Assembly (NCBI GenBank): GCA_965207735.1 | Contig: OZ242296.1 | Coordinates: 2,208,001 to 2,272,000, forward strand | Reading direction: 5' to 3' | DNA: 64,000 bases | Source: Candidatus Versatilivorator sp. | GTDB taxonomy: Bacteria > Acidobacteriota > Terriglobia > Versatilivoradales > Versatilivoraceae | In this document: positions 14,740-58,430 of the stretch, one piece after another | Position numbering within the stretch: position 1 is the first letter of the stretch | How the letters are laid out: each line of letters opens with the position of its first letter | Position numbers and translations under genes: made by a program | The notes under the pieces: model-generated | Databases searched by the model: none | Told to the model about the DNA's origin: nothing | Seen by the model: the letters and a program-made list of their open reading frames with translations, nothing else

Positions 14740-15570
14740 ATCTCACTTACGGGACGCCGCGTCTGCCCCCCTCCGGCTCGACTGCGGGCTCCGCCCTCTC
14801 GCCGACTCCCCCTCAAGGGGGGAGTGATACTCGAGGCCTGCATGGGGCGCCTTGCCGGATTCCCGGGTAGGGTGTAAACCATGTTCCCGGTTTAATGCAT
14901 CAACTCCGTTCCCTCTTCATAACACGGGATCACTCCCCCCTTGAGGGGGAGTCGCAGAAGTCGAGCCGAATGGCGAAGGCTGATGCGGTGGGGGGCGGTC
15001 GCCGGCGCGGCTTTGGGGCAACGCGTGCCGTTGAAGCAGGTCCGTCTCGCTTTGTGGCTCTGCGAGTACTGCCGATTGCCGCTTACGGGACGCCGAGTCT
15101 GCCCCCCTCCGGCTCGACTGCGGGCTCCGCCCTCTCGCCGACTCCCCCTCAAGGGGGGAGTGATACTCGAGGCCTGCATGGGGCGCCTTGCCGGATTCCC
15201 GGGTAGGGTGTAAACCATGTTCCCGGTTTAATGCATCAACTCCGTTCCCTCTTCATAACACGGGATCACTCCCCCCTTGAGGGGGAGTCGCAGAAGTCGA
15301 GCCGAATGGCGAAGGCTGATGCGGTGGGGGGCGGTCGCCGGCGCGGCTTTGGGGCAACGCGTGCCGTTGAAGCAGGTCCGTCTCGCTTTGTGGCTCTGCG
15401 AGTACTGCCGATCGTCACTTTCGGGACGCCGAGTCTGCCCCCTCCGGCTCGACTGCGGGCTCCGCCCTCTCGCCGACTCCCCCTCAAGGGGGGAGTGATA
15501 CTCGAGGCTTGCATGGGGCGCCTTGCCCGATTCGCGGGCGGGGTGTAAACCATGTTTCCGGGTTAATGTG
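14740..15570. repeat. Repeat family B tandem array (about 336-bp period)
   Basis: Near-identical units offset by 336 bp with hairpins near 14804, 14928, 15141, 15265 and 15476. Confidence 0.9.
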
Positions 15571-17565: not shown

Positions 17566-18540
17566 TTGAACTGCCACATCCTCTATCACGACAACTGCTT
17601 CGACGGCGCCTGCTCGGCCGCCGTCTTCATGCGCTTCTACCTCTCGAGGATCGAACCAAGAGCCCGTTTCATCCTGTTCGGCCTGTACCATCAGCCCCGC
17701 CAGACCTTTCCCGACCACCTCTTCGGGGGGGACGAGAACGCCATCGTGGACTTCAAGTACGCCAGCCACGAGCGGCTGACCTGGTGGTTCGACCACCACT
17801 ACAGCGCCTTCCTGACTCCCGAGGACGAGGCCCACTTCCGGAGCCGGAACAGCGACCGGATGTTCCACGATCCCAACTACAAGTCCTGCACCAAGATGAT
17901 CGCCGCCATCGGCCACAGCCGCTTCGGGTTCGACTCCGGGGTGCTGGAGGACCTCATCCACTGGGCCGACATCGTGGACGGCGCCCTCTACGCCAGCGCC
18001 CGGGAGGCGGTCGAGGTGGGCGAACCGGCCCAAAAGCTGGCCGCCGTCATCGAGGCCAACCGGGACGCCGCCTTCTCCCACCGCATCATCCGCCAGCTCT
18101 CCCAGCAGCCCCTCGACCAGGTGGCCACCCAAGCCGAGGTGCTGGACCGCTACCGCCCCCTGCACCGGCACCACTCCGACAACATCCGCACCATCCGGGA
18201 GGTCTCCGAATGCAGCCGAGGGGTGACCTTCTTCGACCTGATCCCCTTCGGCATGGAGGGCTACAACAAGTTCATCCCCTACCATCTCCACCCCGAATGC
18301 AACTACCACGTCAGCCTGATGCAGTCTCCCCAGCGCACCAAGGTCTCGGTGGGCTCCAACCCCTGGAGCCCCAACCCCCGCCGCCACAACCTGGCCCGCA
18401 TCTGCGAACGCTACGGGGGCGGCGGCCATCCGGTGGTGGCCGCCATCTCCCTGCCTCCCGGCCAGGCAGACCGCGCCCGCCAGGTGGCGCGGGAGATCGT
18501 GGAGGAGCTTCAGGGATCCACCAAGGACGCGAAGAAATAA
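17566..18540 (+). CDS. DHH-family phosphoesterase
   Basis: YHDNCFDG, IVDF, WWFDHH and C-terminal GGGGH motifs; probable TTG start at 17566. Confidence 0.85.
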   Translation: MNCHILYHDNCFDGACSAAVFMRFYLSRIEPRARFILFGLYHQPRQTFPDHLFGGDENAIVDFKYASHERLTWWFDHHYSAFLTPEDEAHFRSRNSDRMFHDPNYKSCTKMIAAIGHSRFGFDSGVLEDLIHWADIVDGALYASAREAVEVGEPAQKLAAVIEANRDAAFSHRIIRQLSQQPLDQVATQAEVLDRYRPLHRHHSDNIRTIREVSECSRGVTFFDLIPFGMEGYNKFIPYHLHPECNYHVSLMQSPQRTKVSVGSNPWSPNPRRHNLARICERYGGGGHPVVAAISLPPGQADRARQVAREIVEELQGSTKDAKK

Positions 18541-18548
18541 AAAGAGTA

Positions 18549-18615
18549 ATCCACGAAGGGTCACGAAGGGGTTGGAGGAAAACCCAGAGGGATCCGCCAA
18601 GGGTCGGTAAGGGGG
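18549..18615 (+). repeat. Repeat family D unit (ATCCACGAAGGGTCACGAAGGGG...)
   Basis: Begins about 10 bp after the DHH stop, purine-rich strand on the sense strand. Confidence 0.7.
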
Positions 18616-18626
18616 AAGGAGTAGTG

Positions 18627-20130
18627 CCCCCCCGGGAGCGCGGGCGTCTCGCCCGCATTCGACTTGGCATGATGGAAACGATCCCCCTAAGGGTGAGTTG
18701 GGTGCGCTTTGCGAGGGAGTGGCCGGGGGCGGCAGACTGTTTGCAGGAATTCGGTTGCGGGCGGGACGCCCGCGTTCCCGGGGGGGCCATTCCTTTGCCG
18801 GTTTCCCGTGCGTCCATACTTCGTTGGCGACTTGGCGCACCGCACCTATTTCTTGGACCATTCTCGCTTTGGAGGCAATACGGCTCGTGAAGAAAGACCA
18901 CCCGGGAGCGCGGGCGTCTCGCCCGCACAAGGCCTGGCACGAACGTGGCTACCTCCCGCACTTCGATGAAGCGGGAACGGTGCAATTTCTCACTTTCCGC
19001 CTTGTTGACGCGGTTCCCGCCGCGACAGTCACCGCCTGGAAAACCGAACTGAAGCTCAGTGGCGGTGAAACGGCCGACGATCCCCGCTGTGCGCGCCTTC
19101 GCGGCCGAATCGAGCGTTTCGCCGACCAGGGACACGGCGCCTGCTGGCTGAAAGACGCCCGCGCCGCGCAGGTGGTCCAGGATGCGCTGCTGCATTTTGA
19201 CGGTGAGCGGTATCGGCTTCTGGCGTGGGTCATCATGCCCAATCACGTGCATGCGGTAATCGAGACACTGCCCGGCTTTCCCTTGGACGGGGTCATTCAC
19301 TCCTGGAAGTCGTTCACTGCCAAGCGGGCCAATCGACTCTTGGGCCGGACTGGCGCCTTCTGGATGGGAGACTACTTCGACCGCTATGTCCGCGATGAGG
19401 CACATCTCTGGGACGTAATGCGTTACATGGAAGAGAACCCCGCAAAGGCGGGTTTGGTGCGCTTCGCAAGGGAGTGGCCGTGGATGGGAGGCTGTCTACA
19501 GGAATAAGACCCACCCGGGAGCGCGGGCGTCTCGCCCGCACAAGGCCTGGCACCATGGAAACGATCCCCCTAAAGGTGAGTTGGGTGCGCTTTGCGAGGG
19601 AATGGCCGCGGACGGCAGGCGGCTTGCAGGAATAAGGTTGCGGGCGGGACGCCCACCCGGGAGCGCGGGCGTCTCGCCCGCACAAGGCTCGGCACCATGG
19701 AAACGATCCCCCTAAAGGTGAGTTGGGTGCGCTTTGCGAGGGAATGGCCGCGGACGGCAGGCGGCTTGCAGGAATAAGGTTGCGGGCGGGACGCCCACCC
19801 GGGAGCGCGGGCGTCTCGCCCGCACAAGGCTCGGCACGAAGGAAACGATCCCCCTGAAGGTGAGTTGGGTGCGCTTTGCGAGGGAATGGCCGTGGATGGG
19901 AGGCTGTTTGCAGGAATAGGGTTGCGGGCGGGACGCCCGCGTTCCCGGGGGTTTGGTGCACTATGCGAGGGAATGGCCGTGGATGGGAGGCTGTTTGCAG
20001 GAATAAGGTTGCGGGCGAGACGCCCGCGTTCCCGGGGGTTGGTGCACTGTGCGTGGGAATGGCCCTGGACCGCAGGCTGTTTGCAGGAATAAGGTTGCGG
20101 GCGGGACGCCCGCGCTCCCGGGGGGGCCTT
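18627..20130. repeat. Repeat family C: REP/REPIN-like cluster around the RAYT gene (CCCGGGAGCGCGGGCGTCTCGCCCGCA and inverse), 142-bp tandem units downstream
   Basis: Paired inverted REPs at about 18630/18757 and tandem units from about 19514 with 142-bp period. Confidence 0.9.
18887..19507 (+). CDS. REP-associated tyrosine transposase (RAYT, Y1/HUH family)
   Basis: WHERGYLPH, FLTFRL, WVIMPNHVH (HUH), WKSFTA, FW..DYFDRYVRD, Y.EENP.KAGL; GGAGG then GTG at 18887; flanked by REPs. Confidence 0.92.
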   Translation: MKKDHPGARASRPHKAWHERGYLPHFDEAGTVQFLTFRLVDAVPAATVTAWKTELKLSGGETADDPRCARLRGRIERFADQGHGACWLKDARAAQVVQDALLHFDGERYRLLAWVIMPNHVHAVIETLPGFPLDGVIHSWKSFTAKRANRLLGRTGAFWMGDYFDRYVRDEAHLWDVMRYMEENPAKAGLVRFAREWPWMGGCLQE

Positions 20131-30551: not shown

Positions 30552-31503
30552 GTCCACGAAGGGGGTCCGTGCAGAACCGTGACGGGGTCAAAAGACTTAT
30601 CCACGAAGGGGGTCCGAGAAGAATCGTGACGGGGTCAAAAGGCTTATCCACGAAGGGGGTCCGAGAAGAATCGTGACGGGGGTTAAAAGATTTCCACGAA
30701 GGGGCACGAAGGTCCACGAAGGGGCACTAAGGCGGCGGAGGTGGATCGGGAGGGGTGCCAGGGGTCGGGTAGGGAAAAGAAAAAGATGTCCACGAAGGGA
30801 GTCCGAGAAGAATCGTGACGGGGTTAACAGATTTCCACGAAGGGGCACGAAGGGGCACTAAGGGGTTGGAGGTGGATCGGGAGGGGGGTGCCAGAGTTCG
30901 GGTAGGAAAAGGAAAAAGATTTCCACGAAGGGAGTCTATGCAGAACCGTGACAGGGGAAAAGGCTTATCCACGAAGGGAGTCCGTGCAGAACCGTGACGG
31001 GGGAAAAGACTTTTCCACGAAGGGGCACGAAGGACCACGAAGGGGCACTAAGGCGTTGGGGGTGGATCGGGAGGGGGTTGCCAGGGTTCGGGTAGGAAAT
31101 GGAAAAAGACATCCACGAAGGGAGTCATTGCAGAACCGTGACGGGGTCAAAAGACTTATCCACGAAGGGAGTCTATGCAGAACCGTGACGGGGGGGAAAG
31201 GCTTATCCACGAAGGGGCACGAAGGTCCACGAAGGGGCACTAAGGCGGCGGAGGTGGATCGGGAGGGGGGTGCCAAGGGTCGGGAAGGGAAAGGAAAAAG
31301 ATTTCCACGAAGGGAGTCTTTGCAAAACCGTGACGGGGAGAAAAGGCTTATCCACGAAGGGGCACGAAGGACCACGAAGGGGCACTAAGGCGTTGGGGGT
31401 GGATCGAGAGGGAGTTGCCAAGGGTCAGGAAGGAAAAGGGAAAAGAAATCCACGAAGGGAGTCCATGCAGAACCCTGACGGGGTCAAAAGACTTATCCAC
31501 GAA
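30552..31503 (+). repeat. Repeat family D array, purine-rich orientation (TCCACGAAGGGGCACGAAGG...CCGTGACGGGG)
   Basis: Many CCACGAAGGG and CGTGACGGGG units starting about 5 bp after the TMTC copy 2 stop. Confidence 0.9.
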
Positions 31504-31552
31504 ACAGTATATTGCCGACCTGGTTTGCTTTGAACAGGTTGAGGATTTCCTT

Positions 31553-32231
31553 TAACCCCCATCACGATTCTTCTCCGAGCCCTCCGTGGAAATCTTTTTC
31601 CCGTTTCCCCCCTTCCCAATCCCTGGCAACCCCCTCTCGAATTACCTCCGACGCCTTCGTGCCCCTTCGTGGTCCTTCGTGCCCCTTCGTGGAAATCTGT
31701 TAACGCCGCCACGATTCTTCTCGGACCCCCTTCGTGGAAATCCCTTCACCCCCGTCACGATTCTTCTCCGAACCCTCCGTGGACATCTTTTCCCCTTTTC
31801 ACCCCTTCCCGAACCCTGGCAACCCCCTCTCGAATTACCTCCGATGCCTTAGTGCCCCTTCGTGGTCCTTCGTGCCCGTTCGTGGAAATCTGTTAACCCC
31901 CGTCACGATTCCCCTCCGAACCCTCCGTGGAAATCATTTTCCCTTTTCTCCCCTTCTCGATCCGTGGCAACCCCCTCTCGAATTACCTCCGATGCCTTAG
32001 TGCCCCTTCGTGGTCCTTCGTGCCCCTTCGTGGAAATCTGTTAACCCCCGTCACGATTCCCCTCCGAACCCTCCGTGGAAATCTTTTTCCCTTTTCTCCC
32101 CTTCCCGATCCGTGGCAACCCCCTCTCGAATTACCTCCGACGCCTTAGTGCCCCTTCGTGGTCCTTCGTGCCCCTTCGTGGAAATCTGTTAACCCCCGTC
32201 ACGATTCCCCTCCGGACCCCCTTCGTGGATT
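31553..32231 (-). repeat. Repeat family D array, inverted orientation, 148-bp period
   Basis: CCCCTTCGTGGTCCTTCGTGCCCCTTCGTGGA units with 148-bp spacing; ends a few bp from the cyclase stop. Confidence 0.9.
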
Positions 32232-33409: not shown

Positions 33410-33692
33410 TGCTGACGCCGCCTTCGCGGCTCGGGGTTTTGCATCTTTTCCCATGGGCTTACGCCCACGGCTACCTGCTGACGCCGCCTTCGCGGCTCGG
33501 GGTTGCATCCCTTCCCATGGGCTTACGCCCACGGCTACCTGCTGGCGCCGCCTTCGCGGCTCGGGGGTTTTCATCTCTTCCCATGGGCTTACGCCCACGG
33601 CTACCTGCTGACGCCGCCTTCGCGGCTCAGGGTTTTGCATCCCTTCCCATGGGCTTACGCCCACGGCTACCTGCTGGCGCGGCTTCGCCGCT
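33410..33692. repeat. Family A REP tandem array (four copies)
   Basis: CCCATGGGCTTACGCCCACGGCTACCTGCTG repeated at about 65-bp spacing. Confidence 0.9.
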
Positions 33693-34889: not shown

Positions 34890-35550
34890 AGCCCTTGGTG
34901 GCCCTTCGCCGTTCCTTCGTGGCCCTTCGTGGAAATGTTGTTGCCTTTTCGCCCCTCGCGGATATCTTCTTCCCCCTTCCCGACCCTTGGCGAACCCCTC
35001 TCGATCTACCCCCGACGCCTTAGTGCCCCTTCGTCGTTCTTCGTGCCCCTTCGTGGATATCTTTTTGCCTTTTCCTTTTCGCCCTTCGCGGAAATCTTCT
35101 GCCCCCTTCCCGACCCTTGGCGAACCCCTCTCGATCTACCCCCAATGCCTTCGTGCCCCTTCGCCGTTCTTCGTGCCCCTTCGTGGATATCTTTTTGCCT
35201 TTTCGCCCTTCGTGGAAATCTCCTTCCCCCTACCCGACCCTTGGCGGATCCCTATCGATCTACCCCCGACGCCTTAGTGCCCCTTCGTCGTTCTTCGTGC
35301 CCCTTCGTGGATATGTTTTTGCCTTTTCCTTTTCGCCCCTCGCGGATTTCTCCTTCCCCCTTCCCGACCCTTGGCGAACCCCTCTCGATCTACCCCCGAC
35401 GCCTTAGTGCCCCTTCGCCGTTCTTCGTGGCCCTTCGTGGATATGTTTTTGCCTTTTCCTTTTCGCCCCTCGTGGATAAATCTTTTTACCCCGTCGCGGT
35501 TCTACGCGGCCGGGCCTTGTGCGGGCGGGACGCCCGCGCTCCCGGGGGGC
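34890..35550 (-). repeat. Family D array ending in a family C REP
   Basis: GCCCCTTCGTGGATAT...CCCGACCCTTGGCGAACCCCTCTCGATC units; TGCGGGCGGGACGCCCGCGCTCCCGGG near 35520. Confidence 0.85.
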
Positions 35551-35641: not shown

Positions 35642-37411
35642 TCAGTTTCCGAGGTTTTCTCCCCTGGCCGGGGAACGTGCTCCTCCGAACTCCGGATCGG
35701 GAATCACCAGGGCCAGGTAACCGGTGGCCATGTCCAAGGATGCTCCCTGCATGGAATCGATCAGGATCATGGCCATTCCATGGGCATGACGGAAGCCTGC
35801 CCGGGCGATGGCGTATCCCTCGAATCCGGGCAGGAAATCGCTGCAGGTAAACGAAACGGTATCGCCCGCGGCCAGGCTGGAGGCGATCTCCATCACCATG
35901 GTCGGCGGCACCCTTCCGCTGGAGCCGTCGAAAGTGGGGATGCTCCTGGCAAAGGCATGAAACACGACGCTTCCGGACTGCTCCACCGCACCGCCGCTGA
36001 GTCCGAAGACCCCGTCGTCGCTGGTGGTGTTGGCAATGGAAATGACCATGTCCCAATTGGGGTAGGCGCCGCAATTGAGTTGGGGGAACAGCAGGTAGGT
36101 GACACACGGGGTGAAGTTCAGGATGCGGCCGTCGGGAAAGACGATCTCCGGATCGGATTCCGGCATCATCAGGTAGGAAAGCACCGAAGCGCGATCGTCG
36201 TCCTCACCGCTCTTGCCGGCCGGTCCAAGCCAAGCCCAGATATCGGCGATGCCGCCGGACCCCGCCATGTCGGGGTCGACTTCAACCGTGAACTCGATCT
36301 TGAAGAAATCCGAAACGGTGGCGACGTTCCTGTCGCCAGCGCCGGTCCTGCCCTCCGCGGTGGCGGCGTAGATGTAGGTGACCGTCTCGCCGGTGCCGGC
36401 AGCCACCGTCTCGCCCTCGACCTCTTCCTGACCGGCACCCCTATTATTGGCCGCATCCACCTGTCCGGCCTCTCGACGGGATGCATCCGTCAGGGTGAGA
36501 TTGCTCCAAGCGTTACGGGGGGAGGCATCCTGGTCGGGATCCATGAAATTGACCCCATGGGGCCAGCGCAAGTCGGTCCCCTCGGGCAAGTTGTTCACCT
36601 GGATGGTGACCCTGGTGGAGCCGATCCCGGATCCTTCATCGTCTTCCCAGGCCCGGGCGAAGCCCTCGGTCACCGTGATGGACGGGACGCCGCCGATGGG
36701 AACTTCAACGTCGTCGGCCGTATCGGCGGTGCCCTGGTCATCGGTCATGGTTCCGAGGTTGCACAGGAGCCGGTTGGCGCGCCCGACTTCAACCCTCAAG
36801 CCGTCCCTGACGATGGACACCCTGCCCCCCACGTTTTCGGACCTCTCCCGATCGATGGGAACGAACCCGGTGGGAGCCGTGGCGGAATTGATGGAGGCCA
36901 GGATCCTGTCTCCATCGGACAGGCGCGAAACGTCGGCTCGCACTCCCCGCAGAACCACAAAGCCGAACTGGCCGGCATCGGGCCGGGCGGTCCCCAGGGC
37001 GAGGGTGACCGTGCCGACCCCGGTGTCCTTGTCATTGGCGATGGTTGCGGCAATGCCGCCGTCGCAACTGGTGTCGGCTTCTCCTTCGGCGTCAGTCTGG
37101 TTGAAGGTACCGGCGCACAGCAACTCGGCGCCTCCGGTGAGATAGAGGCCACCGTAGTTCACGGTGACGGTCCTGCCGTCATCGATATCGCCGCCGCCGT
37201 GGGAGTAGTCCAGCCGGATGGCGCCCATCTCCTGGTTGCGTCCGTGCTGGACCACGGTCGTCTCGGATTTGGAGACTATGAATCCTTGGGCGTTGGCCCG
37301 CGTAAGGGACAGTCCCGGCAGGAGCAAGGCGCACAATAGAAGGGTTGATGGTGTTCGCAGGTTCTCGGTCGCCATTGTGAAGATCCAGCGGAGAAACGGC
37401 CGTCGTATCAA
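35642..37411 (-). CDS. Secreted acidic Gly/Thr/Asp-rich protein, S-layer-like, paralog 1
   Basis: GAGGAG RBS with TTG start; signal peptide ending ANA/QGF; colinear with 38617-40326, sharing VTYLLFP, FEGYAIA, FRHAHGMA and GYLALVIPDPEF. Confidence 0.7.
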   Translation of the reverse strand: MIRRPFLRWIFTMATENLRTPSTLLLCALLLPGLSLTRANAQGFIVSKSETTVVQHGRNQEMGAIRLDYSHGGGDIDDGRTVTVNYGGLYLTGGAELLCAGTFNQTDAEGEADTSCDGGIAATIANDKDTGVGTVTLALGTARPDAGQFGFVVLRGVRADVSRLSDGDRILASINSATAPTGFVPIDRERSENVGGRVSIVRDGLRVEVGRANRLLCNLGTMTDDQGTADTADDVEVPIGGVPSITVTEGFARAWEDDEGSGIGSTRVTIQVNNLPEGTDLRWPHGVNFMDPDQDASPRNAWSNLTLTDASRREAGQVDAANNRGAGQEEVEGETVAAGTGETVTYIYAATAEGRTGAGDRNVATVSDFFKIEFTVEVDPDMAGSGGIADIWAWLGPAGKSGEDDDRASVLSYLMMPESDPEIVFPDGRILNFTPCVTYLLFPQLNCGAYPNWDMVISIANTTSDDGVFGLSGGAVEQSGSVVFHAFARSIPTFDGSSGRVPPTMVMEIASSLAAGDTVSFTCSDFLPGFEGYAIARAGFRHAHGMAMILIDSMQGASLDMATGYLALVIPDPEFGGARSPARGENLGN

Positions 37412-38616: not shown

Positions 38617-40326
38617 CTACTGCCCCAGGCTTTCTCCATCGTTGGCTCCTCTTCCGGCGTTGTTGAATTCCGGATCGGGAATCACCAGGGCCAGGTAGCC
38701 ATGGGCCACGTCCTGGGAAGCTCCGTCGGCAAAGTTACCCAGGACGATAGCCATTCCGTGGGCATGACGGAAGCGCGCCTTGGCTATGGCATACCCTTCG
38801 AACCCGGGCATGATGGTGCTGCAGGTGGTCGAATAGGTATCGCCCGCGGCCAGGCTGTCGGTCAGCATCATGCTCATGGGTTTTGCCATGTGCTTCATGC
38901 TGTCCTCACCGTAGGTGCTCCGCGGGAAGGCGTGCAGAATGATGTCTCCGTTCTGGGCCGCCGCACCGTCACTGATTCCAAAGACTCCGTCATCCAGGGT
39001 GGTGTTGGAGATGGCGATGGCGGTGGTCCAGGCGGGGTCAGAGCCGCAGGTGAGGTAGGGGAAGAGCAGATAGGTGACGCACTCGGTGAAGTTGATGATG
39101 TCACCATCGTCGGATTCCGGATCGGTAACCGGGCTCATGTTGTAGGACAGTATCGTACCCCGGTCGTCGTCGTCACCGCTCTTGCCGGCCGGTGAAAGAA
39201 ACGCCCAGAGATCGGAGATGCCGCCGGCGCCCACGTCGGCCAGTGTGGCGATGTCGACATCGAACTCGATCTTGAAGGCTTCGGACTCGGTGGTCACGCT
39301 CTTGTCGTTGGCGCCGGTCCTGCCTGCCGCTTCATTCGAGTACACATAGGTGACCTCATCGCCGGCGGTGGCAGCGACAGTCGTGCCATCGACGTCTTCC
39401 TGACCCGCACCCGTAGTGCCGACAACCCTGCCGGCAGTCCGCCGGGAGGCGTCCGTCAGGGTGAGAGTGCTCCATACAGTGTCCACGTCTTCGGCGGGAT
39501 CCGCGAACGTGACCGTATGCGGCCAGCGCAAGTTCACTCCCTTAGGCAGATTGAGCATCTTGACGGTGATGTTGGTGGCGGAGATCCCGGATTGTTCCAC
39601 GCTTTCAAAGGCCGTGGCGAAACCCTCCGTCACCGTGATCGACGGGGTGCCGCCGATGGGAGTCGAAGTATCGTCTGCAGTGTCGTCCGTGCCTTGGTCA
39701 TCTACAAGGTCACCGATGTTGCACAGGAGCCGGCTGGCGCCCCCGAGCGTCACGGCCAAGCCGCCCTTGACGGTGGACACCACGCCACCCACGCTCTCGG
39801 TCCTGTCCTGGCCGATGGGAACGAAACCGCTCGGGGCCGAGGAGGAATTGACCGAGGCCACGATGGTGTCGCCGGCGGACAGGCCCGAAACGTCGGCCCT
39901 GACGTTTTTCAGAATGACGAAAGACCCGGCCGCCCGGCCCGCGGTCCCCATGCTGATGGTGACCGTTCCGACGCCGGTGTCGTCATCGTTGGCAACGGCA
40001 GCCGTGATAGCGGAGCAGGTGTCGGTTCCGAAACCGCCGCCGCACTGCAATGTAGCGGTGCCAGCGGTGGTGGAAGCGTTGTCGTTGGCAATGGCGGCGG
40101 AGGTGATCCTCAAACTACCGTAGGTCACCGTGATGGTCCTGCCGTCATCGATGTTGCCGCCGCTGGCAGCGTAGTCCAGCCGGATGGCGCCCATCGGCTG
40201 GTTTCTACCATGCATGACCACATCGGTCTCGCTCTTGGAGACGGTGAACCCTTGGGCATTCACCTGGGTCGCAGCCATCCCCAGCATGAGCAAAGCACAT
40301 ACTGCAATGGTAAATGTAACTCTCAT
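38617..40326 (-). CDS. Secreted acidic Ser/Thr/Gly/Ala-rich protein, S-layer-like, paralog 2
   Basis: GAGGAG RBS; MRVTFTIAVCALLMLGMAATQVNA signal peptide; own strong promoter and terminator. Confidence 0.75.
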   Translation of the reverse strand: MRVTFTIAVCALLMLGMAATQVNAQGFTVSKSETDVVMHGRNQPMGAIRLDYAASGGNIDDGRTITVTYGSLRITSAAIANDNASTTAGTATLQCGGGFGTDTCSAITAAVANDDDTGVGTVTISMGTAGRAAGSFVILKNVRADVSGLSAGDTIVASVNSSSAPSGFVPIGQDRTESVGGVVSTVKGGLAVTLGGASRLLCNIGDLVDDQGTDDTADDTSTPIGGTPSITVTEGFATAFESVEQSGISATNITVKMLNLPKGVNLRWPHTVTFADPAEDVDTVWSTLTLTDASRRTAGRVVGTTGAGQEDVDGTTVAATAGDEVTYVYSNEAAGRTGANDKSVTTESEAFKIEFDVDIATLADVGAGGISDLWAFLSPAGKSGDDDDRGTILSYNMSPVTDPESDDGDIINFTECVTYLLFPYLTCGSDPAWTTAIAISNTTLDDGVFGISDGAAAQNGDIILHAFPRSTYGEDSMKHMAKPMSMMLTDSLAAGDTYSTTCSTIMPGFEGYAIAKARFRHAHGMAIVLGNFADGASQDVAHGYLALVIPDPEFNNAGRGANDGESLGQ

Positions 40327-40734: not shown

Positions 40735-41212
40735 AAGATTTCCACCAGGCGGATCCACGAAGGACGCGGAGGGATCGGAGGAGAATCGTGACGGGGGTTA
40801 AAGGATTTCCACGAAGGGGCACGAAGGCGTTGGGGGTGGATCGGGAGGGGGTTGCCAGGGTTCGGAAGGGGGAAAAGGGAAAAAGATTTCCACGAAGGGG
40901 GTCCGAGGGGAATTGTGACGGGGGTTAACAGATTTCCACGAAGGGGCACGAAGGCGTTGGGGGTGGATCGAAAGGGGGTTGCCAGGGTTCGGGAAGGGCA
41001 AAAAGGGGAAAAGATGTCCACGGAGGGTTCGGAGGTGAATCGTGACGGGGGTGAAGGGATTTCCACGAAGGGGGTTCGGAGAGGAATTGTGACGGGGGTT
41101 AACAGATTTCCACGAAGGGGCACGAAGGTCCACGAAGGGGCACTAAGGCGGCGGAGGTGGATCGAGAGGGGGTTGCCAGGGTTCGGGGAGGGGGAAAAGA
41201 TTTCCACGGAGG
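40735..41212 (+). repeat. Family D array
   Basis: TTTCCACGAAGGGGCACGAAGG and GTGACGGGGG units. Confidence 0.85.
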
Positions 41213-41214
41213 GT

Positions 41215-41880
41215 TGCCGATCGCCACTTACGGGACGCCGAGTTTGCCCCCCTCCGGCTCGACTGCGGGCTCCGCCCTCTCGCCGACTCCCCCTCAAGGG
41301 GGGAGTGATACTTGAGGCCTGCACAAGACCTCTTGCCCGATTCCTGGGCGGGGTGTAAACCATGTTCCCGGTCCAATGGGTAAACGCCGTTCCCGGTTAG
41401 TGCCGCGGGTATCACTCCCCCCTTGAGGGGGAGTCGCAGAAGTCGAGCCGAATGGCGAAGGCTGATGCGGTGGGGGGCGGACGCCGGCGCGGCTTTGGGG
41501 GCAACGCGTGCCGTTGAAGTAGGTCCGTCTCGCTTCGCGGCTCTGCGAGCACTGCCGGTCGCCGCTTACGGGACGCCGAGTCTGCCCCCCTCCGGCTCGA
41601 CTGCGGGCTCCGCCCTCTCGCCGACTCCCCCTCAAGGGGGGAGTGATACTCGAGGCTTGCATGGGGCGCCTTGCCTGATTCCTGGGCGGGGTGTAAACCA
41701 TGTTCCCGGTCCAATGGGTAAACGCCGTTCCCGGTTAGTGCCGCGGGTATCACTCCCCCCTTGAGGGGGAGTCGGAGAAGCCGAGCCGAATGGCGAAGGC
41801 TGATCCGGAGGGGGGCCAACGCGGCGTCCCGAGAGTGCTCCTCCCGCCGTCGATCCAGAGGGGGGCAGACGCCACCTACC
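41215..41880. repeat. Family B tandem array (about 338-bp period)
   Basis: Hairpins near 41286, 41411, 41624 and 41749. Confidence 0.88.
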
Positions 41881-41914
41881 GGGGATCACAACCCTTCCCG
41901 GTAATCAATTCCGC

Positions 41915-42139
41915 TTACCGAAGAATTTTGCAAATGGCTCTCTTCAGTGTCACGTCTTTGTACCGAACTGAGATCGGCGTTTGAGCAACAAAAGGGATCT
42001 TCCTGGCTCTCAACTCGATTTCCAGGGCTTCCTGGTAAATCGATTCCAGAAAGCCCGGGCCAAGCTCGCGATGCACCTCAATCGCAGCTCCCACAACGGC
42101 GTACACTTCGTCTTTCAATATCAAATCCGACACTGCCAA
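41915..42139 (-). pseudogene. Truncated GxxExxY protein (PD-(D/E)XK-like nuclease family)
   Basis: YAVVGAAIEVHRELGPGFLESIYQEALEIEL....IPF..Q..I.V.YK with the GxxExxY motif; only 74 aa, lacking the expected D...IVELK half. Confidence 0.85.
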
Positions 42140-42169
42140 CTCTCATGGCCCACCTGCCAAGGCTAGAAA

Positions 42170-42387
42170 CAGGCGCCAACCCCTCCCGGTTCTGCATAGA
42201 CTCCCTTCGTGGATATCTTTTTCCTTTTCCTTCGCGACCCCTGGCAACCCCCTCCCGATCCTCCTCCAACCCCTTAGTGCCCCTTCGTGGACCTTCGTGC
42301 CCCTTCGTGGAAAAGTCTTTTTACCCCGTCAGGTTCTGCACGGACCCGCTTCGTGGCACTTCGTGGCGCTTCGCGGCCCTTCGTGGA
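42170..42387 (-). repeat. Family D array between gspD and the GxxExxY gene
   Basis: On the minus strand the gspD stop TGA is followed directly by TCCACGAAGGGCCGCGAAGCGCCACGAAG. Confidence 0.85.
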
Positions 42388-44613
42388 TCAGTTCGCGTCC
42401 CGGCTCAGCTCCTTCTTGAGGCCCTTGAGGGTGGATTTCAGTTCCTCGGTGAGATCGGCGGCCTGTTCGATGTCCTCGATGACCTGGGGGGTGATGAGGG
42501 CGATGAGCTCGGTGCGGGTCTTCTTTCGGGAGGTGGTGCCGAACAGCAGACCCAAACCCGGGATCCGGCCCAGCAGGGGAACCCGGTTCCTGGAAACGCC
42601 GTTGCTCTCGGAAATGATGCCTCCGATGGCGATGGTCTGTCCGTTCTTGACGGTCACCTGGGTATCGACGGAACGGATGTTGATGCTGGGAGACTGGATG
42701 CCCGAGGTGGGCGGAGGCCCCGGGCTGCTCACTTCCTGCTGTACCTCCAGGGTGACCCAGCCCCCGGCGTTGATTCGGGGGGTGACGCTGAGAATGACGC
42801 CGGTGTTGCGGTTCTGGATGGTGTTGGAGAAGAGGCTGGTGCCGCCGGTCCCGCCCGGAATCACACCCTGGGAGGTCAGGATGGGTATCTGGGATCCCAC
42901 CTGGATGTTGGCGGCCACGTTGTCGGAGGCGATGACGGTGGGGGCCGAAAGCACCCGGGAGCGGTTGCGGGTCTCCTGGGCATTCAGAAAAGACACCAGT
43001 TCGCGGGTGTCGCCCATCAGGACCCTGGTGGCCAGGTTCAGGCCCGCCGACACGGCGCCGCCGGGCCCGAAGCTGGCGGTGGTGTTGGAGGGGCCTGCAA
43101 CCGCCCGGTTGCCGCGCTCCTGCAGAAAGGCCGAGATGCCCATGGAGAGCTCGTCGTCCAGCACCACCTCGTAGATCTTGACGTTGATCAGGACCTGGCG
43201 GGGCACCCGGTCCAGCTCCCGGATGGTTTCCTCGATGACCTCGAAGTCCTGGGGGCTGCACTGGACGATGACGGCGTTGTTCTGATCGTCGGCGACGATC
43301 TTGATCTCTCCCTGCACGATCTCTTCCGACCTTGCCAGCGGATCGGCGGCGCCCGCCGCGGTCCCGGCCTGAGCGCTTTCGGGGGGGAGAAGGATCTCCT
43401 CCTCCTCTCGCTTGCCGGCTCCATAGATTTTCAGCAGCAGCTCGGCAATGGCCACGGCGTCGCCGTTCTGGATCTTGACGAAGAAGTTGCGAACCTCGCG
43501 GTTGAGACCGGCCTGGTCCAGCCGGGCGACCCAGCGGTCGACTTCCTTGAAGGTGCCCGGACCGGGGCCGATGGCCAGCACCGAGTTCAATCGGGGAATG
43601 GGCACGAACCGGACGGGAGAATCTCCCGCCAGGGCGTAGCCGGCGAAGATGTCCTCCAGCTCCAGGGCCAGGTTGGTGGCCCGGCTGTTCCTGAGCTCAT
43701 AGAGGCGGACGCGCTTGCCGCCGAACACGTCCGAGTCGAAGATCCGGACCAGCTCCAGCAGCTTGGCGACGTTGGCGGGAGTGTCGGTAACGATCAGAAA
43801 GTTGGCTGCCCGGTGGTAGGTGATGTCGCCGCCGTCCGAGAGAAAGGGGTTGAGCAGCTCGGCCATCTCGGCGGCCGGCACGAAGTCCATGGGAACGATC
43901 TGAAGCACCCGGCTGCCCCCCGCGGGCGCGGCGGAGGCTTCCCGGCCCCGTCGAATGTCCAGCGGCAGTTGCCTGGCGTTGCGGCTGGGAATGATGCGGT
44001 AGAGGGGCCCGGTCCTGACGATGGCGGCGCCGTTGATCTGCAGGACGAGCTCCAGCAGCGGCATCAGGTCGCTACGCCTCATCTCGCCGTAGGTAAGGAT
44101 GTTGACCACTCCCTGTACCCCGGGGTCGACGATGTAGTTCAGCTTCAGCTCGTCGGCGATGTTGCGAACGAACTCGAGCAGTCCGCAATCCACGCAATTG
44201 AAGCGGAAGCGGGCGTTGGGCCCGGTGGGTCCCGAAGTCTGCAGGATCGGGCGGGCCTCCGGATCGGAAACCTCCTCCGGCCCGGGCGCGGCGGCCTCGC
44301 CGGAAGCCGGCGGCTCCGCCTCGGCCTCGGCCGGGGCGGGAGCAGCCTGCGGGGCCGCGGAGCCAGTGCCTGGCGCCGGGCGGCGGCCTCCCCCGAAAGG
44401 CGTGGGGATCGGCTCGGGCTGCGACTCGGGCTCCCCGGCCTCGGGCTCCGAGTCCTCCTCCGCCGGCGGCGAGGCCTGGGCGGAATTGTCGGCCTGGTCT
44501 TCTTCGGCCAGGGCCTGCAGGGGCAGGATTATCCCCAGACCGATCAGCAGCGCCAGGGCAAAGCCCCGGCCCATTGAAGACGATGCGATTCGAACCATGA
44601 TGCGACTCCTCAC
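42388..44613 (-). CDS. gspD: Type II secretion secretin
   Basis: N0 domain (FNCVDCGLLEFV...LNYIVDPGVQGVV), N-domain repeats, RQVLINVKIYEV, VPLLGRIPGLGLLFG, TELIALITPQVI; start uncertain. Confidence 0.93.
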   Translation of the reverse strand: MRSRIMVRIASSSMGRGFALALLIGLGIILPLQALAEEDQADNSAQASPPAEEDSEPEAGEPESQPEPIPTPFGGGRRPAPGTGSAAPQAAPAPAEAEAEPPASGEAAAPGPEEVSDPEARPILQTSGPTGPNARFRFNCVDCGLLEFVRNIADELKLNYIVDPGVQGVVNILTYGEMRRSDLMPLLELVLQINGAAIVRTGPLYRIIPSRNARQLPLDIRRGREASAAPAGGSRVLQIVPMDFVPAAEMAELLNPFLSDGGDITYHRAANFLIVTDTPANVAKLLELVRIFDSDVFGGKRVRLYELRNSRATNLALELEDIFAGYALAGDSPVRFVPIPRLNSVLAIGPGPGTFKEVDRWVARLDQAGLNREVRNFFVKIQNGDAVAIAELLLKIYGAGKREEEEILLPPESAQAGTAAGAADPLARSEEIVQGEIKIVADDQNNAVIVQCSPQDFEVIEETIRELDRVPRQVLINVKIYEVVLDDELSMGISAFLQERGNRAVAGPSNTTASFGPGGAVSAGLNLATRVLMGDTRELVSFLNAQETRNRSRVLSAPTVIASDNVAANIQVGSQIPILTSQGVIPGGTGGTSLFSNTIQNRNTGVILSVTPRINAGGWVTLEVQQEVSSPGPPPTSGIQSPSINIRSVDTQVTVKNGQTIAIGGIISESNGVSRNRVPLLGRIPGLGLLFGTTSRKKTRTELIALITPQVIEDIEQAADLTEELKSTLKGLKKELSRDAN

Positions 44614-50584: not shown

Positions 50585-51016
50585 TCATTGTTCGCGCGGG
50601 ACGGGGACCCAGGTCATGGTCTCCAATGAATAGCGGTTCTCGGACCCGCTGCCCGGCCAGGCGACCTGCAGCCGGACCCGGGCCAGCCGGTAGGCTCTGC
50701 GGGGCCCTTCCTCCTCGTCGCCGCCGGCGGCTTCGATCTGGGCCCGCCAGCGGTACTTGCCGCCGAACTCCCCCGAGCGGGCCGCCGGCTCCCTGCCCTG
50801 CCGCAGAGCCAGGCAGATCTCATTGAGCTTCATCTGGGCGTTGCGGACCAGCGTCTCGCGGTCCTCAATGCGGGAGACCGACTGCAGCGAGCCCGACAGC
50901 ACTCCGAACAGCGCCACAAAACCCACTCCCAGGATGGTCACGGCCACCAGCACTTCTATCAGGGTGAAACCCTGGGCGGCGGGCTTGGAAGCAGGTTTTC
51001 GGGCCATCGGCAGCAT
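50585..51016 (-). CDS. gspI: Type II secretion minor pseudopilin I, copy 1
   Basis: QG/FTLIEVLVAVTIL prepilin motif; purine-rich RBS. Confidence 0.8.
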   Translation of the reverse strand: MLPMARKPASKPAAQGFTLIEVLVAVTILGVGFVALFGVLSGSLQSVSRIEDRETLVRNAQMKLNEICLALRQGREPAARSGEFGGKYRWRAQIEAAGGDEEEGPRRAYRLARVRLQVAWPGSGSENRYSLETMTWVPVPREQ

Positions 51017-51149
51017 CTCTCTTCCCTTCCCCTTAGAGCGTTTGAATCGCAAGAAAGTCGAAAGAGGCGTCGGGGATTGTGGATTTTGGATTGTAGGTTA
51101 TCGATTTGGGGCGCATTCAGACGTCGTAGGTCCCAATCGACTGATGGTC

Positions 51150-51964: not shown

Positions 51965-52396
51965 TCATTGTTCGCGCGGGACGGGGACCCAGGTCATGGT
52001 TTCGAGTTGGTAGCGGTTCTCGGACCCGCTGCCCGGCCAGGCGACCTGCAGCCGGACCCGGGCCAGCCGGTAGGCTCTGCGGGGCCCTTCCTCCTCGTCG
52101 CCGCCGGCGGCTTCGATCTGGGCCCGCCAGCGGTACTTGCCGCCGAACTCCCCCGAGCGGGCCGCCGGCTGCCTGCCCTGCCGCAGAGCCAGGCAGATCT
52201 CATTGAGCTTCATCTGGGCGTTGCGGACCAGCGTCTCGCGGTCCTCAATGCGGGAGACCGACTGCAGCGAGCCCGACAGCACTCCGAACAGCGCCACAAA
52301 ACCCACTCCCAGGATGGTCACGGCCACCAGCACTTCCATCAGGGTGAAACCCTGGGCGGCGGGCTTGGAAGCAGGTTTTTGGGCCATCGGCAGCAT
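51965..52396 (-). CDS. gspI: Type II secretion minor pseudopilin I, copy 2
   Basis: Copy of 50585-51016 offset by 1380 bp with four visible amino-acid differences (R/Q, I/M, E/Q, S/Q). Confidence 0.8.
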   Translation of the reverse strand: MLPMAQKPASKPAAQGFTLMEVLVAVTILGVGFVALFGVLSGSLQSVSRIEDRETLVRNAQMKLNEICLALRQGRQPAARSGEFGGKYRWRAQIEAAGGDEEEGPRRAYRLARVRLQVAWPGSGSENRYQLETMTWVPVPREQ

Positions 52397-52417: not shown

Positions 52418-54346
52418 CCGAAGTTCCTCCCATTTTACACCCAAAAAATCGCCTTAAGCCATTTGTTTTCTTGGGGAAGAGGATTGAGGCGTGTGGAGTG
52501 TTGTTCCCATGTATATGATTAGCATTTATCTTGACATGATAGTTGTATGTGATATCGTAGTCCCATGTACGTCGAAACCGTCCCCAACCGCAACTCTCCC
52601 CCTGCCATCCTCCTGCGCGAAGGCCGCCGTGAGGGTAAAAAGGTCCATAAACGCACCCTGGCCAATCTCTCCCATTGGCCCAAGGACAAGATCGAGCGCC
52701 TCCGGCGCGTGCTCAAGAACGAACCCCTGGTCCATCCCGACCAACTCTTCGCCATCGAACGCTCCCTGCCTCATGGCCACGTCGAGTTGCTGCTGGAAGT
52801 GGTGCGGCAGCTGAAGCTGCCGGCGCTGATCGATTCCCGACCCTCTCCCCAACGGGACCGGGTCTTGGCCATGATCCTGCAGCGTCTGCTCTATCCGGCC
52901 TCCAAGCTGGCCACCACCCGTCTTTGGCACACCACCACGTTGGGTGAGGAACTGTCCCTTGAGGACACCGACGAGGACGATCTCTATGAGGCCATGGACT
53001 GGTTGCTGGAGCGTCAGGACCGGATTGAGCGCAAGCTGGCCAAGCGGCACCTGGCGGAAGGGGATGCGGTGCTCTATGACGTCAGCAGCAGTTACTACGA
53101 AGGCCAGACCTGCTCGCTGATGCAGTTCGGCCACAACCGGGACGGCAGGCGGGACCGGCCCATGGTGGTCTACGGGGTGCTGGCCGACCAGATGGGGCGG
53201 CCGCTGTCGGTGCAGGCCTATGCCGGCAACACGGGGGATCCGACCACGGTGGGGGATCAGGTGGAGAAGGTGCGGGGTCGGTTTGGTCTGGAGCGGGTGG
53301 TGCTGGTGGGGGACCGCGGGCTGCTGACCGAGACGCAGATCAGCCATCTGAAGCGTCATCCGGGAGTGGGGTGGGTCTCAGCCCTGCGCCACCACCAGAT
53401 ACGCCGTCTGGTGGAGAGCGAGGCGGTTCAGCTCTCCCTGTTCGACGAGCGTCATCTGGCCGAAGTCCGCAGCCCGGACTATCCGGGCGAGAGGCTCATC
53501 GTCTGCCACAACCCGCTGCTGGCCGAGCATCGGCGGCGGAAGCGGGAGGCTTTGCTGACAGCCACCGAGGAGGCGCTGGCCGGAATCGCCCGCCAGGTGG
53601 CCAGACGGACCCGCACGCCCTTGTCGGCGACCGAGATCGCCGAGAAAGTCGGCCGGGTCAAGAACCGCTTCCAGGTGGCCAAACACTTCCGGACCCAGAT
53701 CGCAGACGGGTCCTTCCACTATGAACGGCGCACCGACGCCATCATCCGGGAGGCGCAACTGGACGGGTTCTACATGCTGAGGACCAGCGAGCCAGCCGAT
53801 CGCCTGCCAACAGCCGCGGTGGTGCGCCGCTACAAGGACCTGACGCGGGTGGAGCGGGCCTTCCGCTCCCTCAAGACCGTCGACCTGCACATCCGCCCCA
53901 TCCGTCATCGGGTGGAGAGCCGGGTGCGGGCTCATCTGTTCCTGTGCCTGCTGGCCTATTACGTTCAGTGGCATCTGCGGCTGGCCCTGGCTCCGTTGCT
54001 GTTCGATGACGAGGAGTTGGAAGCGGAACGGGCACGGCGAGACCCGGTGCTGGCGGCCCAGCCGTCGGACTCCGCCAAACGGAAGAAGAGCAAACGCCTC
54101 ACCGAGGACGGCTTGCCGCTGCAGAGCCTGGAGACGTTGATGGCGCAGATGGCGACGCGGGCCCGCCACCAGTGCCGATTGCCCTCCGAACCCGATGGTC
54201 CGCGAGTCCAGCGATTGACCGAGCCGACCCCGCTACAGCAAAGGGCCTTCGAGCTCATCAGGATGTTCCCAGGCAAGACAACCTGAGATTCCTGATTGAT
54301 GATTGAAGATAAAGGAGTTATCTTGTCGGTGGGTCAGGAACTTCGG
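52418..54346 (+). mobile_element. IS1634-family insertion sequence
   Basis: TIRs CCGAAGTTCCT (52418-52428) / AGGAACTTCGG (54336-54346); 6-bp TSD CTTAGA at 52412-52417 and 54347-54352; empty site at 51032-51037. Confidence 0.92.
52565..54286 (+). CDS. IS1634-family DDE transposase
   Basis: LYDVSSSYYEG, FGHNRDG, VGDRGLL, YKDL..VERAFRSLK, RPIRH....VRAHLFLC. Confidence 0.93.
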   Translation: MYVETVPNRNSPPAILLREGRREGKKVHKRTLANLSHWPKDKIERLRRVLKNEPLVHPDQLFAIERSLPHGHVELLLEVVRQLKLPALIDSRPSPQRDRVLAMILQRLLYPASKLATTRLWHTTTLGEELSLEDTDEDDLYEAMDWLLERQDRIERKLAKRHLAEGDAVLYDVSSSYYEGQTCSLMQFGHNRDGRRDRPMVVYGVLADQMGRPLSVQAYAGNTGDPTTVGDQVEKVRGRFGLERVVLVGDRGLLTETQISHLKRHPGVGWVSALRHHQIRRLVESEAVQLSLFDERHLAEVRSPDYPGERLIVCHNPLLAEHRRRKREALLTATEEALAGIARQVARRTRTPLSATEIAEKVGRVKNRFQVAKHFRTQIADGSFHYERRTDAIIREAQLDGFYMLRTSEPADRLPTAAVVRRYKDLTRVERAFRSLKTVDLHIRPIRHRVESRVRAHLFLCLLAYYVQWHLRLALAPLLFDDEELEAERARRDPVLAAQPSDSAKRKKSKRLTEDGLPLQSLETLMAQMATRARHQCRLPSEPDGPRVQRLTEPTPLQQRAFELIRMFPGKTT

Positions 54347-58094: not shown

Positions 58095-58430
58095 TGAATG
58101 AACATGGATGCACAGGATGCACAGGATTTTTTGTCATCGACCGCCTTGTCCCAGAAGCGGACATCGAGCGTGTCGTATCGCAAGAGTGAGCTTCCCGTGC
58201 AGTAGCGTCCCGTCCTGGTTATCCTGTTCATCCTGTTAATCCATGTTCTTATGTTTTTGATTAACATGGATGCACAGGATGCACAGGATTTTTTCTGGAA
58301 ACGGCTAGCCTGTTTACCTGAGCATCCGCAATCCCGCACCGGTTCATCGCCCGAGTGAGCTTCTCATGCAGCAGCCTCTCATCCTGGACATCCTGTTAAT
58401 CCTGTATATCCTGTGCATCGATGTTAAATA
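58095..58430. repeat. Repeat family E: two inverted-repeat cassettes (AACATGGATGCACAGGATGCACAGGAT ... ATCCTGTTCATCCTGTTAATCCATGTT)
   Basis: 9-bp periodic ACAGGAT units near 58103 and 58265 with reverse complements near 58221 and 58381; a partial unit also at 1-15. Confidence 0.8.

Follow-up and report, generated by a model that had tools for sequence, protein, structure and literature searches.

In the genome of Candidatus Versatilivorator sp. (GCA_965207735.1; complete, 5.26 Mb; hereafter G000), a fragment of a gene of the GxxExxY family lies between two oppositely oriented arrays of the same short periodic repeat, which raises the question of whether gene and repeats once formed a single unit and, if so, of what kind. 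The locus belongs to a stretch of 64,000 nucleotides, here called the window (contig OZ242296.1, positions 2,208,001 to 2,272,000 of the forward strand), and coordinates refer to the window unless a genome and contig are given. A preliminary description, made from the letters of the window alone, had pointed out the truncated gene at 41915-42139, had named the repeats family D, and had proposed that the protein is the cognate factor of a dispersed repeat family. We find that the locus is a decayed cassette made up of an arm, a GxxExxY gene and an inverted arm, in which the catalytic 3' half of the gene has been replaced by the end of a miniature inverted-repeat transposable element (MITE) derived from an insertion sequence (IS). 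It is a decayed member of an apparently undescribed nuclease-and-repeat system.

The remnant gene and its arms

Profile searches with the open reading frame (ORF) at 41915-42139 on the minus strand returned PF13366 (E 2.5e-18, 67 bits against a cut-off of 22, profile positions 2-60 of 117) and TIGR04256, the GxxExxY model (E 9.6e-19, 67.9 bits against a cut-off of 35), bearing out its description as a truncated GxxExxY gene. The homology itself runs from a GTG start at 42133 to 41941, and the last codons of the ORF are the end of the inserted MITE. The remnant stops at codon 64, upstream of the positions of D70, E80 and K82 of intact relatives, so that the catalytic triad is missing, and the sequence joined at the break recurs as a MITE end elsewhere in the genome (194 nt at 98-99%). 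The remnant is 96% identical at the DNA level to an intact gene of the relative G005.

The locus lies between a secretin gene and a gene for an unannotated secreted protein. Read along the minus strand, it consists of an array, the 5' half of the gene, other repeats over about 730 bp and the inverted array. The arrays preceding and following the gene run in opposite orientation, as first described, with an 85-nt pair at 91% complementarity. The hairpin copies at 41215..41822 are later filler, outside the cassette. An Rfam search gave no match at the locus. The two best-matching sequencing runs stem from a single sample, possibly the source of the genome itself; a contig from one of these runs equals 41911-42301 without differences, which lends no independent support. 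A 594-nt contig from run X5 joins the 5' half of the gene to an arm via 187 letters, the length of the missing half, with the junction not established, and fits an intact copy. The read contigs contained no trustworthy excised or empty form. A search of G000 for an intact GxxExxY gene, with D flanks or otherwise, found none genome-wide; the intact copies with the same arms are held by close relatives.

Intact relatives in the genus

Intact genes of the same genus are 82-86% identical to the remnant and lie between inward-facing D arrays, and in G009 an intact cassette occupies exactly the secretin junction of the remnant; for this reason both arrays of the locus are taken as arms of one cassette. 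Eight intact genes of the remnant's lineage were found in seven genomes of the genus, at four gene junctions, and the intact genes of the genus cluster around the secretion-system region. At the junction between a tetratricopeptide repeat (TPR) gene and a cyclase-like gene, where relatives carry an intact gene, the gene has one orientation in G003, G005, G010 and G012 and the reverse orientation in G002, G009, G011 and G000. The secretin junction varies in content across the 13 genomes that have the gene end: the arms hold an intact gene in G009, the remnant in G000, unrelated ORFs in G002 and another repeat only in G012; two genomes have one arm, and seven have none, one of these at a contig end. 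At the G002 locus (L114), what lies between the D arms is a pair of small unrelated ORFs in place of the nuclease gene.

In the tree, the remnant groups at 100/100 with the G005 copy, which lies at a different junction. By approximate counting, the synonymous divergence (dS) between these two is 0.045 over 64 codons, compared with 0.42 between the remnant and the G009 copy at its own junction, and values of about 0.25 and 0.60 in two host genes nearby. The low dS to the G005 copy relative to the flanks therefore indicates that the cassette changed place or host more recently than the flanks diverged. The remnant is closest to the copy in a more distant host, and its lineage is at odds with the host genes. 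The intact genes are under purifying selection (median ratio of nonsynonymous to synonymous divergence, dN/dS, of 0.18 over 28 pairs). D doublets number 57-529 in 12 of the 13 other genomes of the genus; G001 has a single doublet and no gene of the remnant's lineage. Head-to-tail triplicates of the whole cassette, with a period of about 480 bp, occur at G014:C59:287495-288799 and G017:C4:159997-161314.

Architecture of the cassette across bacteria

For a wider comparison, loci were fetched from relatives (30), named genomes (80), metagenomes (80) and viral contigs (2); both sets of 80 are the best of about 600 each, a choice that favours the query lineage. Of 105 loci, 84 had an inverted-repeat score of at least 28, compared with 41 of 1861 control windows. 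Inward-facing chains of a 7-bp word stood on both sides of 72 of 109 GxxExxY genes and of 2 of 88 neighbouring ORFs, so the flanks are enriched for the periodic motif, the point on which the preliminary description had let its idea stand or fall. The word has a consensus of about C-R-C-N-R-A-K and usually occurs three times per arm at 8-10-bp spacing. Chains on both sides were present at 50 of 76 loci from named genomes, spanning 10 named phyla, and, with the metagenomes included, at 103 of 164 loci with full flanks. Outward-facing chains on both sides, seen at 16 of 109 loci, are tentatively attributed to neighbouring elements.

Elements carrying three words in each arm (65) measure 456 bp at the median, and arm symmetry reaches about 5 bp past the first word. 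Among these elements no offset was prominent for direct repeats of 2-8 bp that might represent a target-site duplication, in a comparison of symmetric offsets for elements whose true ends no empty allele defines. The two arms of an element agree at 93% of the positions within words and at 55% of those in spacers; the spacing is equal in both arms in 57 of the 65 elements (28% across elements); and G-U-compatible mismatches are balanced between the strands (46 versus 45). From the word match, the shared spacing and the lack of a G-U strand bias, we infer that the words are putative protein-binding sites rather than an RNA stem. A stem formed in the sense-strand RNA was considered and is unsupported, given the poor complementarity of the spacers and the same balance of mismatches. 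The arms often begin near stop codons: at 69 of 130 arm ends, a long ORF terminates between -25 and +80 nt.

The GxxExxY protein

The protein is 125 aa long, and D70, E80 and K82 are conserved at 90% or more in intact relatives. The structure model of an intact ortholog (pLDDT 95.7) adopts a PD-(D/E)XK fold, and PF13366 is the only profile that the ortholog matches. Structural similarity search using Foldseek gave Cas4 SSO0001 as the top match (E 2.9e-4), and a wide fold search returned tied generic PD-(D/E)XK matches, including Cas4 and R.SwaI among others, near Z 7-8 with a best Z of 7.9; such tied matches do not single out a substrate. Sequence search yielded no significant solved relative. 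A homodimer prediction scored 0.00, gave no answer and is unused as evidence. The protein is presumably an active nuclease.

The family comprises 20,404 clusters (50% identity, E up to 1e-10) and includes many two-domain proteins, such as P0001 and P0002. Single genomes hold 0 to 23 family matches, in several lineages and with many broken copies. For PF13366, the literature gives the function as 'Unknown' and speaks of 'multiple transfers' (PMC3424549), and a further report mentions the GxxExxY family incidentally (10.1101/2021.01.26.428298). The literature searched, with subscription journals and supplements not covered, contained no account of mobility or of flanking repeats in this family.

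Coupling of protein lineage and repeat word

Word classes were defined by the last three bases of the word. On the protein tree of 147 rows the word class changes 25 times, compared with at least 66 in 200 shuffles, which shows co-inheritance rather than co-evolution, as kin share labels. Doublets were counted genome-wide in 50 of the 80 named genomes, chosen for a callable word. The median count was 74 where the sampled gene carries the word and 1 where it does not (11 versus 39 genomes), and the corresponding medians for two other words were 41 versus 1 (17 versus 33) and 20 versus 1 (3 versus 47). The word in the flanks predicts the word abundant in the genome, a correlation that the preliminary description had asked for. 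The largest outlier, G067, has 494 CACGAAG doublets; a second gene with CACGAAG arms was found there, with an N-terminus resembling that of the window's gene. In G041, 14 hand-picked gene-less inward pairs have unrelated interiors and flanks, and gene-less inward pairs are also clear among the places listed for G059. A position in helix 1 tracks base 5 of the word, being Thr with 88 of 102 G-words and 1 of 37 A-words. These comparisons of sequences give good support to a link of the repeat family with the protein lineage, and this part of the earlier proposal stands; that the protein is the cognate factor of the repeats may follow from the same data, and its role as such is still putative.

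Family D arms in this genome

The family D doublet occurs 296 times in G000, against 0 for a reversed control pattern. Its unit, first put at 9-10 bp, is corrected to 10 bp (337 doublets at 10 bp, 1 at 9 and 1 at 11). Single arms fold like shuffled sequence (z 0.60, 0.66 and -1.42), and a hairpin repetitive extragenic palindrome (REP) is rejected for the single arm, in keeping with the earlier view. The term non-palindromic applies to the single arm and fails for arms arranged as inverted pairs, since one gene-less pair from another genome folds as a long stem (z -4.0). By our own gene calls, 185 of 198 arms lie outside genes, a mostly extragenic placement as for REPs. A small hairpin repeat of the form CTGAAACA, 3-4 nt, TGTTTC is present in 27 empty copies and in 117 copies filled with a D arm.

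Besides the remnant, the window holds further traces of the same family (Table 1). A D arm at 18516-18540 replaces the stop codon that relatives keep in the DHH-family gene, adding several codons. Breaks at nearly the same position of the GxxExxY gene (198-200) are found at the MITE junction at 41941 and at the TPR/cyclase junction of G000 and G009, where they mark the beginning of mid-gene or 3' pieces (31498; L224). The coinciding breaks possibly stem from one ancestral event.

Table 1. Features of the remnant cassette and of related traces in the window
Feature	Position	Strand	Remarks
Secretin gene (GspD-like)	42388-44613		
Left (upstream) arm	42170..42390	-	CACGAAG/CACTAAG words at 10-bp spacing; outer end at stop codon of secretin gene
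GxxExxY/PF13366 gene, 5' half	41941..42133	-	64 codons; catalytic D-E-K absent
MITE end	41747..41940	-	Terminal repeat matches 1487-bp DDE insertion sequence; supplies false C-terminus and stop
Unrelated high-copy hairpin repeat	41215..41822	.	Two 270-nt copies, 338 nt apart; overlaps MITE end
Right (downstream) arm	40735..41212	+	Inverted relative to left arm; enlarged through tandem duplication of 127- and 47-nt units
Second decayed cassette, same family	30553..32226	.	Between TPR gene and cyclase-like gene; made up of left arm (30553-31497), mid-gene GxxExxY sequence of about 36 bp (31498-31533) and inverted right arm
Solo arm	18516..18570	+	3' end of DHH-family gene; intact GxxExxY cassette at same junction in G011
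Expanded solo arm array	34893..35476	-	Approximate place of the right arm of the intact cassette in G011

Other repeats and genes in the neighbourhood

The insertion sequence that matches the MITE end is 1487 bp long and of the DDE type (DDE_Tnp_1, DUF772). It is present in 43 copies, at G000:C1:105789-107275 and 42 other sites, many with 4-bp duplications and several inside the A-rich leader of D-arm units, and MITE derivatives of it exist. A second GxxExxY relic, which retains the 3' half of the gene and has arms of the CACAAAA type with 64 motif hits, lies in MITEs of about 337 bp of this insertion sequence, for example at G000:C1:3043930-3044267 and 4281632-4281968. The copy number of this relic was dropped as proof of GxxExxY-driven spread, as the copies lie inside the MITEs.

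Between the E and F genes of the type II secretion system (T2SS), at 58106-58419, the window has ACAGGAT-type periodic repeats, of which 175 doublets occur genome-wide; the E/F junction of relatives (L006, L008, L012 and L018) carries an intact GxxExxY gene of another lineage. A gene of the Y1/IS200-like type, resembling REP-associated tyrosine transposases (RAYTs; E 1.4e-6), lies at 18887-19507 among palindromic GCGGGCG-type repeats and is a candidate driver of another repeat family. The high-copy hairpin family at 41215-41822 recurs at 14744-15568 in tandem units of 336-338 bp; similar hairpins presumably lie beside DUF559 genes. An Rfam match to Acido-Lenti-1 at 33647-33692 (43.5 bits) falls on an array of 66-bp tandem repeats, which suggests that what this model describes is a dispersed repeat. 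Beside the type II secretion cluster, 35642-37411 and 38617-40326 encode two paralogous proteins of about 570-590 aa that look secreted and lack a Pfam match, and within the secretion cluster two similar pseudopilin-like ORFs adjoin a DDE transposase gene (50585-51052, 51965-52396 and 52565-54286).

Comparison with known systems

DDE insertion sequences have terminal inverted arms around one ORF and give rise to internally deleted derivatives, the MITEs. The GxxExxY cassette is similar in its inverted arms around a single ORF, but differs in that it has no DDE domain and no target-site duplication that we could find, encodes a protein of only 125 aa, and occurs in divergent rather than identical copies.

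The REPIN/RAYT system shares with the cassette a small nuclease or transposase gene between its own repeats, and repeats that outlast the gene; it also has extragenic, gene-less inverted doublets about 100 bp long (10.1101/2021.07.10.451892). Clear counterparts of these doublets are seen in G041 and at the listed places of G059, but in few regions of G000. However, the RAYT enzyme is of the HUH/Y1 type rather than PD-(D/E)XK, and its REP is palindromic, whereas each arm of the cassette is built of spaced 7-bp words and is non-palindromic. Moreover, the RAYT gene is single-copy, at a fixed site and congruent with the host; the GxxExxY gene is often multi-copy and occupies four junctions. The Ssn/NTS system (SRM) also combines a single-domain nuclease gene with a repeat-gene-repeat order and has directional repeats in hundreds of copies with lineage-specific motif variants (PMC11893778). 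Compared to the PD-(D/E)XK fold and non-folding single arm of the cassette, it possesses a GIY-YIG nuclease and repeats with a hairpin core, and its activity has been demonstrated (PMC11893778), that of the GxxExxY protein being putative. The repeat flanks 42% of Ssn genes, to be set beside the 72 of 109 GxxExxY genes, and the main text of the Ssn paper, with supplements not covered, leaves GxxExxY unmentioned (PMC11893778). TIRtrons and TIRYTs likewise have a gene bracketed by terminal inverted repeats, which are also dispersed as single, dimer and clustered families, including in Acidobacteria; they differ in their HUH tyrosine transposases, and periodic three-word arms are not described for them in the available text (PMC3733652). 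Altogether, the GxxExxY system works like REPIN/RAYT, TIRtrons and Ssn/NTS but departs from all of them in enzyme and repeat shape.

Explanations of the cassette

We lean slightly towards the explanation that the cassette of about 450 bp, a gene of PD-(D/E)XK nuclease fold between inward-facing arms of 7-bp words, is selfish. The protein would bind the spaced words of its own arms and cut at the arms, and host repair would then copy, flip or re-fill the cassette. Movement would be by cut-and-repair recombination, and not by DDE or HUH transposition. The broader proposal is a good deal more tentative, and we think it rather doubtful: GxxExxY cassettes as a whole might be widespread minimal autonomous mobile elements, combining new chemistry, a 125-aa restriction-fold nuclease that reads phased 7-bp words through a changeable recognition code, cutting of their own arms and copying of the cassette or its gene-less derivatives by host repair without target duplication.

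A number of observations weigh against the selfish cut-and-repair cassette. The signal of relocation comes from 64 codons and could arise without any nuclease, through recombination of homologous arms. No clean pair of empty and filled alleles with defined ends was found at the junctions compared. G004, G006 and G007 have 81-168 doublets with no gene of the remnant's lineage detected, and G070 and G086 have 35-36 CACGAAG doublets with no fully matching gene among those examined. Within G000, just 3 of the 191 regions with arms contain an inward pair, and the other small hairpin repeat encloses or adjoins 157 of 198 arms; copy number is therefore not creditable to GxxExxY alone, and much of it may be secondary. 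The arms of G000 are relics after loss of the enzyme, partly re-amplified as passengers of other repeats, which does not fit a simple story, and the relic inside MITEs tells that relics can multiply without the nuclease. On independent pairs, the residue-to-base link was not significant (median p 0.25; 6 supported pairs, 3.3 with and 0.1 against). Finally, the family is unlike ordinary IS elements in being rare on plasmids (8 of 72,556) and without a match among 50,697 phage records.

The scarcity on plasmids and phages has a parallel in RAYT genes, which are rare on plasmids (10.1101/2021.07.10.451892), and fits a domesticated partner of the Ssn/NTS or RAYT/REPIN kind. Such a protein would recognise the words and serve the host, for instance by nicking single-stranded DNA that bears the repeats, which would modulate recombination in the vicinity of surface-structure genes, and its gene would move passively through recombination of the arms. 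The purifying selection on intact genes agrees with this, as does their clustering near the secretion-system region, which recalls that of NTS near membrane-protein genes (PMC11893778), and the top Foldseek match belongs to the Cas4 proteins, which cut single-stranded DNA (PMC5704561). A domesticated partner would nevertheless be hard to reconcile with the variable number of family matches per genome, spread over several lineages and often broken, with one lineage at four junctions in discord with the host genes, or with the loss of the gene in G000 while the host persists, and we regard it as unlikely.

Less likely still is that gene and arms are passengers, the arms being operator or structural sites of a gene that acts otherwise, or neutral repeats, spread by RAYT-like Y1 transposases, IS-derived MITEs or tandem slippage. 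Most arms of G000 do ride in a composite with the hairpin repeat of which empty copies also occur, IS-derived MITEs contain the second relic family, and a Y1 transposase gene is present in the window; but passenger status leaves unexplained why the same protein lineage goes with the same word and with high word counts across unrelated phyla, and why the hand-picked gene-less pairs of G041 have unrelated interiors and flanks. An RNA-level element, whose arms would pair in the transcript as a long stem processed from operon mRNA like intervening sequences, with a protein acting on RNA, could draw on the arms that begin near stop codons and on the one gene-less pair that folds. The low complementarity of the spacers, the even split of G-U-compatible mismatches and the lack of a partner for most arms in G000 all speak against it, and we consider it very improbable.

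Implications for the family

The copy in the window is dead, and its value lies in its record of relocation, inversion and decay. As the flanks of each GxxExxY gene are its own predicted substrate, the function of the family is directly testable. If the selfish cut-and-repair cassette is true, PD-(D/E)XK proteins would be a third class of enzyme paired with dispersed repeats, after HUH (RAYT) and GIY-YIG (Ssn), and a class of periodic intergenic repeats in many phyla would be explained. If recognition of the words depends on lineage-specific residues, very small site-specific nucleases could be drawn from the family; and should GxxExxY cassettes prove to be mobile elements of the proposed kind, some 20,000 protein clusters would consist of small nucleases with site specificity, and their own flanks would reveal their targets.

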